Below are positions 34,962 through 36,653 of a DNA stretch of 64,000 bases, in pieces. A program made the translations under genes and the position numbers. Each line of letters starts with the position of its first letter. Position 1 is the first letter of the stretch. The notes below the pieces were generated by a model. It made no database searches and had not been told where the DNA came from. It was given only the letters and a program-made list of their open reading frames with translations. This DNA is from a virus, in the UHGV virus genome UHGV-0293664. One strand, 5' to 3'.

Positions 34962-35300
34962 ATGGCGGATACAACTAAAAAGCGTCGCCGTAGAGGCAGA
35001 CCTCTGAAAGAGGAGTCCAACGCCATTCAGCTAGAGAAGAACATCCTTGATATGAAGGAATCTTTTATAGCGATGGTTCCAGAAGCTCACAAAGTTTTAA
35101 GAGAGCTGATGTTGGACCCGAAAACCAAACAAAATATTCGTCAAAGCATTGCAGAGTATGTTCTTGATAAGGCAGAACGAATGCAGGAAGAATATGATGA
35201 GATGTTTGGTGAAGAGGAAGAGGTGGTAGTGGAAGAGGCTGAAAAACCAGCACCCTTTATGCCATTTACCACAGAAATACAGCCTGTTGGCAATAGTTAA
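34962..35300 (+). CDS. hypothetical protein with basic N-terminus and acidic C-terminus
   Basis: ATG after GGAGGA; KKRRRRGRP then EEEEVVVEEAE. Confidence 0.45.
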   Translation: MADTTKKRRRRGRPLKEESNAIQLEKNILDMKESFIAMVPEAHKVLRELMLDPKTKQNIRQSIAEYVLDKAERMQEEYDEMFGEEEEVVVEEAEKPAPFMPFTTEIQPVGNS

Positions 35301-35309
35301 AATATTTTC

Positions 35310-35338
35310 TTGACAAACTTTGCTTAACAGTGTAATAT
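35310..35338 (+). promoter_or_regulatory. sigma70-like promoter upstream of tRNA cluster
   Basis: TTGACA (35310-35315), 17-nt spacer, TAATAT (35333-35338). Confidence 0.5.
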
Positions 35339-35396
35339 TGTAAACATGGTCTCCCACCTTTTCTGGCGGCTCAGGTGTAAAAGAAAGCCACCCAGT

Positions 35397-35471
35397 GCCC
35401 TGTTAGCTTAGTGGATAAAGCAGCGGCCTTCTAAGCCGTTGACACTGGTTCGAGTCCAGTACGGGGTGCCA
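35397..35471 (+). tRNA. tRNA-Arg (anticodon UCU)
   Basis: Hand-folded cloverleaf: acceptor GCCCTGT/ACGGGGT (two G-U), D-stem GCTT/AAGC, anticodon loop CTTCTAA, T-arm ACTGG-TTCGAGT-CCAGT, CCA encoded. Confidence 0.65.
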
Positions 35472-35601
35472 AGTTCTTTTTAATGTAGCTTACTTTAGCA
35501 GAGTAAATCTTCGGCAAGTGGCGGTAACCACTTTACCGATACCTCATAGTTAGTGGTGAGAACACTAGCTATTTTAAAAAGAATTTAAATATTAGTATTT
35601 A

Positions 35602-35689
35602 GGTGAGTTAATTCCGTAGGGGTAGCGGGGCAGACTGTAAATCTGTTATCATTGCGATTCGGGTGGTTCGACTCCATCACTCACCACCA
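35602..35689 (+). tRNA. tRNA-Tyr (anticodon GUA), long variable arm
   Basis: Acceptor GGTGAGT/ACTCACC, anticodon arm GCAGA-CTGTAAA-TCTGT, long variable arm, T-loop TTCGACT, CCA encoded. Confidence 0.65.
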
Positions 35690-35803
35690 AATTTATATTT
35701 TTAAATGCATAAATCATACAGATAATGGCATTGATATTTATCGTCGTTTATACTAGTCACTAACTGCTCGAAAATCAGTGTCATTATCAGTATTGTTTAT
35801 AAA

Positions 35804-35894
35804 AGAGGGTAGGGAGCAATGGTGCTCAAGCGGTCTTGAAAACCGTCCCGTTGAGGATGACTCGATGATGGTTCGATTCCATTATCCTCTGCCA
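35804..35894 (+). tRNA. tRNA-Ser (anticodon UGA), class II
   Basis: Acceptor AGAGGGT/ATCCTCT, anticodon loop CTTGAAA, long variable arm, T-loop TTCGATT, CCA encoded. Confidence 0.6.
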
Positions 35895-35992
35895 TATTGT
35901 TGACCTTGTAATTAAGCGAAAGCCGGAAGCAGAACCGGATTATCAAATGTTACAGTCGTCATCGCCGACTAGCAACATGGTCAACATACTGA

Positions 35993-36089
35993 GCTAGGTA
36001 AGCCCTTTGGCAAGGGCGAGGATTTTTAATCCTGAAAATAGACGAGGTAGTCGTTGAATACATAGGTGGTTCGATTCCATCACCTAGCA
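35993..36089 (+). tRNA. atypical tRNA-like gene (97 nt; anticodon uncertain, possibly UUU)
   Basis: Perfect 7-bp acceptor GCTAGGT/ACCTAGC, D-stem GCCC/GGGC, T-arm GGTGG-TTCGATT-CCATC, but only a 4-bp anticodon stem AGGA/TCCT (loop TTTTTAA), a 30-nt extra region and no full CCA. Confidence 0.45.
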
Positions 36090-36096
36090 CCTTTTT

Positions 36097-36172
36097 GCTG
36101 ATGTAGCACAATTGGTAGTGCAATTGATTTGTAATCAATAGGTTGCAGGTTCGAGTCCTGCTATCAGCACCA
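36097..36172 (+). tRNA. tRNA-Thr (anticodon UGU)
   Basis: Acceptor GCTGATG/TATCAGC, D-stem GCAC/GTGC, anticodon arm ATTGA-TTTGTAA-TCAAT, T-arm GCAGG-TTCGAGT-CCTGC, CCA. Confidence 0.7.
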
Positions 36173-36173
36173 T

Positions 36174-36248
36174 GGCCCTGTAGCTGGAAGGTTCAAGCAA
36201 GCGACTCATAATCGCCAGACGGTGGTTCAATTCCACCCAGGGCCACCA
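36174..36248 (+). tRNA. tRNA-Met (anticodon CAU; initiator, elongator or Ile2 not distinguishable)
   Basis: Acceptor GGCCCTG/CAGGGCC, anticodon loop CTCATAA, T-arm GGTGG-TTCAATT-CCACC, CCA. Confidence 0.65.
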
Positions 36249-36259
36249 AATAATAAATA

Positions 36260-36336
36260 CTCCGCGTAGCTCAGCTTGGTAGAGCGCCTGATTTGGGATC
36301 AGGAGGTCGAGTGTTCGAATCACTCCGTGGAGACCA
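36260..36336 (+). tRNA. tRNA-Pro (anticodon UGG)
   Basis: Acceptor CTCCGCG/CGTGGAG, D-arm GCTC-AGCTTGGTA-GAGC, anticodon arm CCTGA-TTTGGGA-TCAGG, T-arm GAGTG-TTCGAAT-CACTC, CCA. Confidence 0.7.
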
Positions 36337-36383
36337 CTTTCAGTTATACTTTAAACATATACAAACAAAAGGAACCTTTAAAA

Positions 36384-36653
36384 ATGTATACACTTAAAAT
36401 TGTAGAGCGTGTAAATCCAACCCATACCGTAGATTTTCGTGACGATTTCAATCCTCTGGCTGTAAATCTTCGAGAGTCATATCATGAACTCAGCTGCGAT
36501 GCAGTGGTGGTCTTTTTTGAAGACAACTCTGAAGGGGCGGTAGCTTGTGTTGTTGATAGTGAGCAGAAGTTTTATATTTACAGAGATGTAGATGCATACT
36601 TGATGAATGAAAATGCAGTTACTGTTAGAATCATCCACCGAGTGCCTCGATAA
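36384..36653 (+). CDS. hypothetical protein (about 90 aa)
   Basis: Start placed at ATG 36384 after AAGGAA, because the longer track ORF (36276) would overlap tRNA-Pro. Confidence 0.4.
   Translation: MYTLKIVERVNPTHTVDFRDDFNPLAVNLRESYHELSCDAVVVFFEDNSEGAVACVVDSEQKFYIYRDVDAYLMNENAVTVRIIHRVPR

Follow-up and report, generated by a model that had tools for sequence, protein, structure and literature searches.

Does the tRNA-like element that lies between the tRNA-Ser and tRNA-Thr genes of the virus genome UHGV-0293664 encode a working tRNA, a decayed one, or an RNA of another kind? A first-pass annotation of the stretch of DNA analysed here (64,000 nucleotides, hereafter the window) had noted this 97-nt element as an atypical tRNA-like gene within a tRNA cluster, and had offered three readings: an unusual tRNA that nonetheless functions, a duplicate in decay, or a regulatory RNA derived from a tRNA. 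The window is from an rV5-like Vequintavirus, with positions 35300–36400 being 99.5% identical to Escherichia phage ECML-10 and 97–99% identical to rV5, FV3, and many further Vequintavirus genomes. We find that the element belongs to a previously undescribed RNA family, a non-canonical tRNA or tRNA-like RNA encoded in phage tRNA clusters. Full-text literature searches pairing Vequintavirinae, rV5 or Hena1 with tRNA-like, pseudo-tRNA or suppressor returned no description of it, and the six tRNAs reported in the genome paper on rV5 do not include the element (PMC3606486).

The element is almost certainly a conserved, structured RNA gene

The features that the first-pass annotation had read from the DNA are all present: the perfect 7-bp acceptor stem, the A-A at positions 8 and 9, and the extra region with a hairpin of its own (Table 1). 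The T arm, described there as a near-identical counterpart of the one in tRNA-Tyr next to it (GGTGGTTCGACTCCATC), agrees with the latter at 16 of 17 positions. The canonical tRNA features found comprise the 7-bp acceptor stem, a 5-bp T stem, the T loop TTCRANY, a D arm, and the G19:C56 elbow pair, with covariation in all of them. Canonical tRNAs have U8, which pairs with A14; in the element family A8 is invariant and position 14 is U (alignment A3, described below), such that the canonical U8 is lacking. The extra region spans 30–31 nt (36034–36064), and its hairpin is bracketed by two conserved A-rich single strands, GAAAAUA and AAUACAUA. The D arm can alternatively be drawn as a 6-bp stem with a 4-nt loop, as RNAfold and the tRNA-Sec model do by extending the stem by TT/AA; these extension pairs never vary in 20 sequences and hence offer no covariation signal. 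The discriminator A at 36089 is followed by CC at 36090–36091 and then by T (CC-T).

Both the minimum free energy structure and the centroid structure predicted by RNAfold were the five-helix cloverleaf (-34.2 kcal/mol, z = -4.09), and none of 200 shuffled sequences folded as stably as the element. We aligned 20 distinct sequences of the family with MAFFT (alignment A3) and scored the four cloverleaf stems together with one tertiary pair. Across these sequences 98.4% of stem cells are paired, compared to 32–45% when the partners are slid by one to three columns, and 11 of the 22 pairs, including the tertiary pair 19:56, exhibit changes on both sides; the observed covariation score was attained by 0 of 500 shuffles. 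The acceptor stem is paired in 100% of cells, with compensatory changes at 3:70, 4:69, and 5:68, and covarying pairs are also found in the D stem (three of four), the anticodon-like stem (three of five, with the variants AU/GC, UA/CG/AU, and CG/UA), and the T stem (one). The elbow pair between the D-loop G at 36010 (column 18, equivalent to G19) and the T-loop C at 36072 (equivalent to C56) is GC in 13 sequences and UA in seven, G19 being replaced by U in exactly the seven sequences in which C56 is replaced by A. Such covariation is a signature of the pair that would lock the elbow of a tRNA-like L shape.

The extra hairpin is present in all homologues, and its sequence and length vary. Within subgroups it nevertheless covaries, for example as ACGA/TCGT versus ACGG/CCGT, as CCTCC/GGAGG, CCCCC/GGGGG, and CTCTC/GAGAG, and as GCC/GGC versus GTC/GAC; GTTAGAC/GTCTAAC is a further subgroup pair. 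Invariant or nearly invariant positions comprise G1-C72, C2-G71, G6, U7, A8, the D loop TTTG(G/T)(C/T)AA, the T arm, the two G residues that flank the anticodon-like hairpin together with its first pairs (RGG/CCY), the A-rich strand GAAAA(A)U, and the strand AAUAC(A/G).

A covariance model built from alignment A3, which we term R1, gave members of the family scores of 83–122 bits and every other tRNA, class II tRNAs included, ≤34 bits in ~470 kb of phage sequence. The window copy scored 102.1 bits over 35993–36092, and the canonical tRNA-Lys of contig L035 scored 17.7 bits. The family can be defined by GC-NNN-GT-AR, the D loop TTTGKYAA, a short hairpin G-RGG...CCY-G, the A-rich strand, the extra hairpin, AATAC(A/G), the T arm, and single-copy occurrence within a phage tRNA cluster; every one of these motifs is present in the window copy. 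Because covariation, the gap in R1 scores, and the occurrence of one copy per genome coincide, we consider these sequences to be a discrete RNA family under purifying selection for an L-shaped fold, and the element itself to be, almost certainly, a real, conserved, structured RNA gene. The suggestion in the first-pass annotation of a functional RNA with the shape of a tRNA is therefore supported by the sequence comparisons. A protein-coding reading, prompted by hypothetical coding sequences (CDSs) annotated across the element in some records, was rejected, as compensatory stem changes and loop indels favour an RNA gene.

The anticodon-arm analogue is short and its loop is not conserved

The canonical anticodon arm is 17 nt in length, with a 5-bp stem, a 7-nt loop, U33, and a purine at position 37. 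In the window, the hairpin AGGAT-TTTTA-ATCCT can be read either as 4 bp with a 7-nt loop or as 5 bp with a 5-nt loop. The first-pass annotation had proposed the former, with the loop TTTTTAA; this remains drawable, but where Vequintavirus closes the loop with U-A (columns 31-38), the homologous pair of other genera is C-G (C-G in 11 sequences, UA in four), and for this reason the homologues favour the 5-bp stem and 5-nt loop as the better reading. The length of the hairpin between the invariant Gs is 14–16 nt in 31 of 31 variants, that is, 1–3 nt under canonical length. It is 15 nt in Vequintavirus, Avunavirus, Henunavirus, Salmonella phage UTK0002, Justusliebigvirus, and contig L035. The Seunavirus and Mydovirus hairpins reach 16 nt, and a single metagenomic variant has 14 nt.

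The loops range from 5 to 7 nt and comprise ten different sequences across the family, and the anticodon is not conserved among orthologues: TTTTA in Vequintavirus; TTATA in Avunavirus; CATCCA, CAGCCA, CCTCCA, CCGCCA, and CTTCCA in Seunavirus and Mydovirus; CATCAAA in Henunavirus, UTK0002, and Justusliebigvirus; AATCAAG in L035; and GTGATA in contig L053. Vequintavirus and Avunavirus have U at position 33, which is otherwise seen only in CTTCCA, with nearly all others having A or C. The UUU anticodon that the first-pass annotation had deduced is thus specific to the genus and does not generalise to orthologues. In its 7-nt reading, the Vequintavirus hairpin (GGA-UUUUUAA-UCC) matches that of Escherichia coli tRNA-Lys(UUU) (UGA-CUUUUAA-UCA; sequence from PMC11464382) except for position 32 and the distal stem.

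A second odd tRNA was found in Proteus phage Mydo (L010:1367-1448) and Escherichia phage EmilieFrey (L031:1675-1756), neither of whose records annotates it. Its acceptor stem is 7 bp, seven unpaired bases stand in place of a D arm, the anticodon is UCU (Arg), the extra arm is long and contains a hairpin, the T arm is normal, and the 3′ end is G73-CCA; the Rfam tRNA model gives it 34.9 and 38.6 bits. In contrast to the element, this gene keeps a canonical CU-UCU-AA loop in both of these distant phages. This is the pattern expected of a strange but decoding tRNA, and the element family, by its loops, departs from it.

tRNA finders agree only on the acceptor and T arms

The Rfam tRNA model (RF00005) matched the element with 35.5 bits against a gathering score of 29, and the four top-scoring neighbouring tRNAs with 60–76 bits; it aligns the window hairpin as 4 bp with a 7-nt loop (UUU). 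A pseudogene call by covariance models, which the first-pass annotation had named as a result that would refute it, was therefore not obtained. The copies in Av-05, KE22, Mydo, and EmilieFrey had no Rfam match at E < 0.01, and the best Rfam match of the copies in Hena1 and UTK0002 was tRNA-Sec, at 39 bits, under its threshold of 47. When the Rfam scan was extended to E ≤ 10, tRNA and tRNA-Sec were the only curated RNA families matched by copies of the family.

With default settings, ARAGORN reported a tRNA of undetermined type, tRNA-???(atcc). This model comprises an all-A/U stem (ATTTT/AAAAT), an 8-nt loop, and a four-base anticodon, atcc; we rejected it because its stem is paired in 36% of cells on the alignment, the same as in shuffled or slid controls. 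When introns were allowed, ARAGORN reported a tRNA-Gln(ttg) with a 5-nt intron. Relaxed and organellar models had been proposed in the first-pass annotation as a check: relaxed scoring returned the default undetermined tRNA once more, and the metazoan-mitochondrial mode called no gene at the element. ARAGORN found no tmRNA. Collectively, the tRNA finders concur on the acceptor and T arms only and disagree on the anticodon arm.

Distribution and horizontal transfer of the family

A BLAST search with the element alone returned 129 phage records, most of them near-identical rV5-like genomes, along with more remote copies in Avunavirus Av-05 and TH18 (93%) and in Salmonella Seunavirus (75%). The family was widened by repeat searches using distant copies as queries, and homologues were found in all Vequintavirinae genera sampled. 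These include Seunavirus (Salmonella, Cronobacter, and E. coli 4MG phages), Mydovirus (Klebsiella, Proteus, and Raoultella phages), and Henunavirus (Erwinia phages). Outside this subfamily, ~31 records of Justusliebigvirus (phi92-like, Stephanstirmvirinae) carry the element, and a single copy is found in the N4-like podovirus (Schitoviridae) Salmonella phage vB_SenP_UTK0002. Further variants were recovered from IMG/VR and metagenomes by pattern scans built on the conserved strand 3′ of the extra arm (GAATACATA); 34 of 54 metagenome matches were discarded as chance, as they were without a tRNA 3′ half. An exact scan of 185,579 bacterial and archaeal genomes for the motif AATACATAGGYGGTTMGATTCC yielded 0 matches, and a bacterial origin or prophage copies were rejected on this basis.

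The comparison with homologous clusters that the first-pass annotation had called for shows that the element is kept across phage genera. Every homologue lies within a phage tRNA cluster, with one copy per genome. In most genera the element starts 1–5 nt after the CCA of another tRNA, as would be expected of an RNase P substrate. Identity between phage genera within the element is only ~70–75%. The copy in UTK0002 is 88–89% identical to that of an Erwinia phage, and because this likeness stops a few bases beyond the element, the comparison indicates that the element was transferred horizontally, as a lone unit, into an unrelated phage. The family has thus persisted in two virus families, in at least six genera, and appears to have been acquired horizontally by a third.

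Natural deletions remove the element

In two Vequintavirus species, deletions have fused the 5′ part of a tRNA-Tyr-type gene to the 3′ part of the element, with the loss of both genes. In O157 typing phage 4 (L093:840-935), the junction lies in the near-identical T arms, such that the tRNA-Tyr sequence runs through GGTGGTTCGACTCCATC and is followed by ACCTAGC-ACC-TTTTT from the element. In V18 (L005:1450-1546), the junction lies further upstream, in the extra arm at GTCGT-TGAATACATAGG. The acceptor strands of both hybrids no longer pair. From these natural variants we conclude that the element is accessory, rather than essential, on laboratory hosts. Dispensability of this kind fits a conditional role, for example one that depends on host defences.

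A non-decoding tRNA mimic and its alternatives

Since the anticodon-arm analogue is neither canonical nor conserved while the tRNA body is maintained, we favour, over a working tRNA, the reading that the element RNA is processed as a tRNA and mimics one without decoding; to this reading we assign a probability of about 0.5–0.6. Between the two readings that the first-pass annotation had left side by side, an unusual tRNA and a tRNA-derived RNA, the latter in the form of a non-decoding tRNA-like RNA is the likelier, the short arm and variable loop making a lysine decoder doubtful.

According to this reading, the operon promoter would drive transcription of the element along with its tRNA neighbours. 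The 5′ end of the element would be freed by RNase P, which recognises the acceptor/T-arm helix, the elbow, and N73-CC, and cleavage at tRNA-Thr, five bases downstream, would leave a short 3′ trailer whose trimming by exonucleases would free the 3′ end. The host CCA-adding enzyme could then complete this end; trimming followed by CCA repair is a known route for T4 tRNAs without an encoded CCA. The predicted product is a stable, L-shaped RNA, and this look-alike may be bound by some tRNA-recognising factor, rather than act as an ordinary decoder.

Which factor this might be is best considered for the Vequintavirus version, where we speculate, as the likeliest specific mechanism, that the hairpin imitates the loop-proximal part of tRNA-Lys(UUU), and that the RNA competes for, or is spared by, nucleases that target tRNA-Lys during infection. 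Among defence nucleases, PARIS/AriB, PrrC, and a bacterial Schlafen protein cleave tRNA-Lys(UUU), and phage tRNAs serve as counter-measures (PMC11464382, PMC11555353, PMC13056530, PMC10264068). rV5 moreover has genes resembling the T4 tRNA-repair set near its cluster (see below). A decoy or competitor for anticodon nucleases, or a nuclease-proof back-up tRNA-Lys, is therefore plausible, although a specific decoy-against-nuclease mechanism is at present a tentative proposal that we consider unlikely. The same idea can be widened to the whole family as a form of RNA counter-defence, in which an L-shaped decoy, abundantly produced by the tRNA operon, would block or soak up PrrC, RloC, PARIS/AriB, Schlafen-type, or acceptor-end-modifying enzymes. 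The diversifying loop and extra arm would then record an arms race with different host effectors, and the rV5-like loop would have converged on the anticodon stem-loop of tRNA-Lys(UUU). The odds are against this broader proposal as well.

Several points weigh against a non-decoding mimic. The window loop is readable as a canonical 7-nt lysine loop (U33, UUU, A37, A38) in an RNA with A73, and the phage has no ordinary tRNA-Lys. U73-CCA is retained in most other genera, a hint that importance attaches to the 3′ end and perhaps to charging. To act on a catalytic nuclease, a decoy would need either high abundance or very tight binding. Likeness to a host anticodon stem-loop is confined to the Vequintavirus loop, and the share of this likeness due to G29/C40 is family-wide. 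Finally, the natural deletion hybrids lack the element, and it is dispensable on laboratory hosts.

The alternative that survives best, a serious rival though we judge it doubtful, is a working, structurally unusual tRNA-Lys(UUU) that would be charged by LysRS through U34-U35-U36 and A73, read AAA and AAG, and serve as a nuclease-resistant back-up decoder in the manner of the T5 tRNA-Lys that neutralises PARIS. A UUU anticodon together with A73 makes up the identity set of E. coli LysRS. With a stem of 4 bp and a G-G mismatch, the window loop is readable as U32-U33-UUU-A37-A38, which is how the Rfam tRNA model aligns it at a score above threshold, and the discriminator is A73; several GenBank records label the element tRNA-Lys. 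Vequintavirus is without a canonical tRNA-Lys, and Justusliebigvirus and L035 have a canonical tRNA-Lys plus an element with another loop. Nuclease-resistant phage tRNA-Lys is also not without precedent (PMC11464382, PMC11555353). However, the anticodon and loop length vary, and the nearest relatives, Av-05 and TH18, have TTATA with U or C as the discriminator. The loop-closing positions, being C-G in other genera, imply a 5-nt loop here, on an arm that is shorter than canonical, and ARAGORN assigns no consistent anticodon, giving three mutually inconsistent models. The CCA is decaying in the Vequintavirus/Avunavirus clade, whose 3′ ends are degenerate (A-CCT, A-CAT, T-ACA, and C-ACA). Moreover, the 30-nt extra region lies on the face approached by class II synthetases such as LysRS, and the body is not that of a class I tRNA, with its variable loop of 4–5 nt: TGACTTTTAATCA and a short variable loop are common to the canonical tRNA-Lys of phages and of the host.

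It is improbable that the element acts only in cis, with its tRNA shape serving as punctuation for RNase P and exonucleases or as a stabiliser for the neighbouring tRNAs and the released RNA having no function. The position of the element is consistent with such a role, in that it always lies in the cluster, usually 1–5 nt past another CCA, ends 5 nt before tRNA-Thr, and is dispensable in the deletion variants. An acceptor and T-arm minihelix would suffice for punctuation, however, which leaves unexplained why the D arm, the anticodon-like stem, the extra hairpin, the single strands, and the 19:56 pair are under selection, and why the element was transferred precisely and alone into the tRNA cluster of an unrelated phage.

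We consider it very improbable that the element is a class-II-like tRNA with a shifting anticodon (UUU, UAU, UCC/GCC, UCA), charged independently of the anticodon, or by GlyRS or CysRS through U73, and acting as a missense or opal suppressor. The long extra arm does occur together with 'anticodons' that are not those of Leu, Ser, or Tyr, as in nev-tRNAs, allo-tRNAs, and selC* tRNA-Cys (PMC3333845, PMC5389517). Copies in Henunavirus, UTK0002, Justusliebigvirus, and L035 have loops of the form N-A-UCA-A-N with U73 and have been annotated as tRNA-sup(tca); the best Rfam match of these UCA-type copies is tRNA-Sec, at 39 bits. In Seunavirus and Mydovirus, U/G-C-C with U73, G1:C72, and C2:G71 resembles the GlyRS identity set. 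Against this, position 33 is A or C in nearly all members outside Vequintavirus, many loops have 5 or 6 nt, the arm never attains canonical length, Seunavirus also has a normal tRNA-Gly(UCC), and the tRNA-Sec score of 39 falls below 47 in an RNA with a 7/5, not 8/5, acceptor/T arrangement. The specific idea of a glycine tRNA was rejected, given the loops without CC in Henunavirus, Justusliebigvirus, Vequintavirus, and L053, the 6-nt loops with A or C at position 33, and the normal tRNA-Gly also present.

Lastly, a neutrally drifting pseudogene of a class II tRNA (Tyr, Ser, or Leu), or in the terms of the first-pass annotation a decayed duplicate, can hardly be correct: the T arm near-identical to that of tRNA-Tyr, the low general-model scores, the tRNA-OTHER labels, and the incomplete CCA in the genus would fit decay, but they are outweighed by compensatory changes in every helix and in the 19:56 pair, strongly conserved unpaired segments, broad retention, horizontal acquisition by an N4-like phage, and the separation of the family from real tRNAs by R1, while identities of ~70–75% between genera exclude an alignment artefact of recent descent.

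Comparison with known systems

The closest structural parallels are the class II tRNAs (Leu, Ser, and Tyr), with which the element shares the 7-bp acceptor stem, the 5-bp T stem, the T loop, the D arm, G19:C56, an extra stem-loop, and placement in a tRNA operon, as well as A73 in the case of the Vequintavirus copy. Class II variable arms total ~13–21 nt and have short flanks, whereas the extra region of the element is 30–40 nt, with conserved unpaired flanks of 6–7 nt and 9 nt. The element family also differs in having A8 rather than U8, an anticodon-arm analogue of 14–16 nt whose loop varies, none of the Leu, Ser, and Tyr anticodons, and mostly U73, and real class II tRNAs score ≤28 bits with R1.

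tRNA-Sec has a 13-bp acceptor/T domain (8/5), G73, and a UCA anticodon. With tRNA-Sec, selC* tRNA-Cys, and allo-tRNAs (PMC5389517), the element shares a long extra arm and, possibly, a D stem of 6 bp closed by a loop of 4 nt, and the copies of some genera share with selC* tRNA-Cys a UCA-AA(A/G) loop with U73. All members of the family, unlike tRNA-Sec and allo-tRNAs, have 7/5 acceptor and T stems, not 8/5, 8/4, or 9/3. The family differs further from tRNA-Sec (RF01852) in having A73 or U73 and, in UCA copies, A33, and its best member scores 39 bits against a threshold of 47; the window copy is without UCA and has no tRNA-Sec match, and selA or selB genes were not seen nearby, no search aimed at them having been made. 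The nematode nev-tRNAs, eukaryotic tRNAs with a variable arm and Gly or Ile anticodons that retain canonical 7-nt loops and are charged with leucine in vitro (PMC3333845), likewise combine a class-II-like body with foreign 'anticodons', which in some lineages of the element are coincidentally Gly-like and Ile(UAU)-like. The loops of the element, in contrast, are not canonical.

Among phage RNAs, T4 RNAC and RNAD (species 1 and 2) are small stable RNAs that are also encoded inside a phage tRNA cluster, and their function has been unknown for 50 years (PMC3014915, PMC9697503). They differ from the element in being 119–139 nt and in not being full cloverleaves, and R1 run on T4 with filters off gave 8.9 bits for rnaC and no match for rnaD, and hence no homology to the element. 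T4 rnaC (L094:1745-1883) has a T-arm-like sequence, CCGGG-UUCGAAU-CCCGG, near its 3′ end and folds with z = -4.57; it too is therefore partly tRNA-like, though not homologous to the element family. Nuclease-resistant phage tRNAs (T5 tRNA-Lys against PARIS, tRNA-Tyr against retron-Eco7, and the anticodon-loop variants of van den Berg et al.) share with the element a phage cluster and a stem-loop close to that of host tRNA-Lys, a parallel that makes a link to tRNA-targeting defence plausible, but are canonical, demonstrably decoding, and have conserved anticodons, whereas in the element the arm is non-canonical, the extra region is huge, and the anticodon is not conserved. Non-decoding mimics, such as the tRNA-like domain of tmRNA, YrlA, and viral tRNA-like structures, share an L-shaped mimicry with acceptor and T-arm features. 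The element matches none of these families in Rfam (YrlA scores 14.8 bits against 69), and differs from them in having kept a complete D arm and a helix resembling the anticodon arm.

The tRNA cluster and its promoter

Besides the element, six tRNAs were identified in the cluster, five by ARAGORN and tRNA-Tyr by Rfam alone (Table 1). CCA is encoded in all six of these neighbours and is incomplete in the element; tRNA-Thr begins five bases past the CC of the element. The site equivalent to the promoter at 35310–35338 is annotated as P(tRNA) in the rV5 record, and this promoter probably drives the tRNA operon, the element included.

Table 1. Coordinates of the element, its parts, and the neighbouring features in the window.
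Feature	Position	Strand	Remarks
Whole tRNA-shaped RNA gene, G1 to discriminator A73	35993–36089	+	Rfam tRNA, ARAGORN, family model R1, RNAfold
Acceptor stem, 5′ strand GCTAGGT	35993–35999	+	Perfect pairing with 36082–36088
Connector A8-A9	36000–36001	+	A8 invariant in family; position 9 is A or G
D arm GCCC / TTTGGCAA / GGGC	36002–36017	+	Loop of invariant type; 3/4 stem pairs covary
Anticodon-arm analogue: invariant G, AGGAT-TTTTA-ATCCT, invariant G	36018–36034	+	Stem covaries
A-rich single strand AAAATA, 5′ side of extra arm	36035–36040	+	Three A's invariant in 20 sequences
Extra (variable-arm) hairpin G-ACGA-GGTAG-TCGT-T, including a G-U pair	36041–36055	+	Hairpin in every homologue
Single strand GAATACATA, 3′ side of extra arm	36056–36064	+	AATAC invariant, AATACATA nearly so across family
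T arm GGTGG-TTCGATT-CCATC	36065–36081	+	99% of cells paired, one compensatory pair
Acceptor stem, 3′ strand ACCTAGC	36082–36088	+	Covariation
Sigma-70-like promoter TTGACA-17-TAATAT	35310–35338	+	Consensus scan, 10/12 matches; upstream of tRNA-Arg
tRNA-Arg(UCU)	35397–35471		
tRNA-Tyr(GUA)	35602–35689	+	Rfam alone
tRNA-Ser(UGA)	35804–35894	+	ARAGORN alone
tRNA-Thr(UGU)	36097–36172		
tRNA(CAU)	36174–36248	+	
tRNA-Pro(UGG)	36260–36336		

Some of the neighbouring genes exhibit variations of their own. tRNA-Tyr(GUA) is itself atypical, with five bases (TAATT) rather than two between the acceptor stem and the D stem; it was missed by ARAGORN and reached only 39 bits with Rfam. The best Rfam match of tRNA-Ser(UGA) was tRNA-Sec, at 39.4 bits, under the threshold of 47. 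The tRNA(CAU) gene is labelled tRNA-Met in rV5 and tRNA-Ile (codon ATA) in BASEL phage records, and could be a lysidine-type tRNA-Ile2. Many rV5-like genomes align to just 89% of a 1.1-kb cluster query, in two pieces, with part of the inter-tRNA region absent or diverged.

HNH homing-endonuclease genes lie beside the element or inside the cluster in several relatives (L006:1523-2017, L015:608-1000, OR062943.1), and these insertions fit the mosaic, mobile character of phage tRNA clusters. In rV5, adjacent genes for a phosphoesterase, an ATPase, and a T4-Rnl1-like RNA ligase (RNA ligase 1), gp076–gp078 (L030:20707-22715), are found ~4 kb from the cluster, and resemble the T4 tRNA-repair set (Pnkp and Rnl1), which counters anticodon nucleases.

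Annotation and significance

More than 250 deposited phage genomes contain the element, many of them candidates for biocontrol or therapy against E. coli O157, Salmonella, Klebsiella, Cronobacter, and Erwinia. In GenBank the element is mostly unannotated, and is otherwise labelled as tRNA-Lys, tRNA-OTHER, tRNA-TERM, tRNA-sup(tca), tRNA-???(atcc), or a hypothetical protein; a family model would fix this inconsistent annotation along with false 'suppressor tRNA' flags. A phage RNA that, as covariation attests, keeps a tRNA body without a canonical anticodon arm bears on why phages carry tRNA clusters, and on T4 RNAC and RNAD. If the element were a mimic directed against tRNA-targeting defence, or a nuclease-proof lysine decoder, it would add a mechanism of counter-defence; were it a decoy, it would be the first tRNA-mimic inhibitor of bacterial immunity, and this would account for its transfer alone between unrelated phages.

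Several database records covering the cluster are also noteworthy. Small CDSs for hypothetical proteins run across the element in several of the sequences compared (L002:1579-1698, L010:1006-1207, L032:1510-1611, and L011:964-1248), and in OY978796.1 the cluster stretch is overlaid by opposite-strand pseudo-CDSs and carries no tRNA features; all of these CDSs are probably annotation artefacts. Eighteen records named 'Campylobacter phage' (MG065635, MG065646, and MG065652–MG065690) match the rV5-like cluster at 97.8% and the element at 99–100%, and PQ002170.1, a 142-kb Salmonella phage with a Seunavirus-type element and cluster, is nonetheless classified as Demerecviridae. Both cases look like problems of labelling or contamination.

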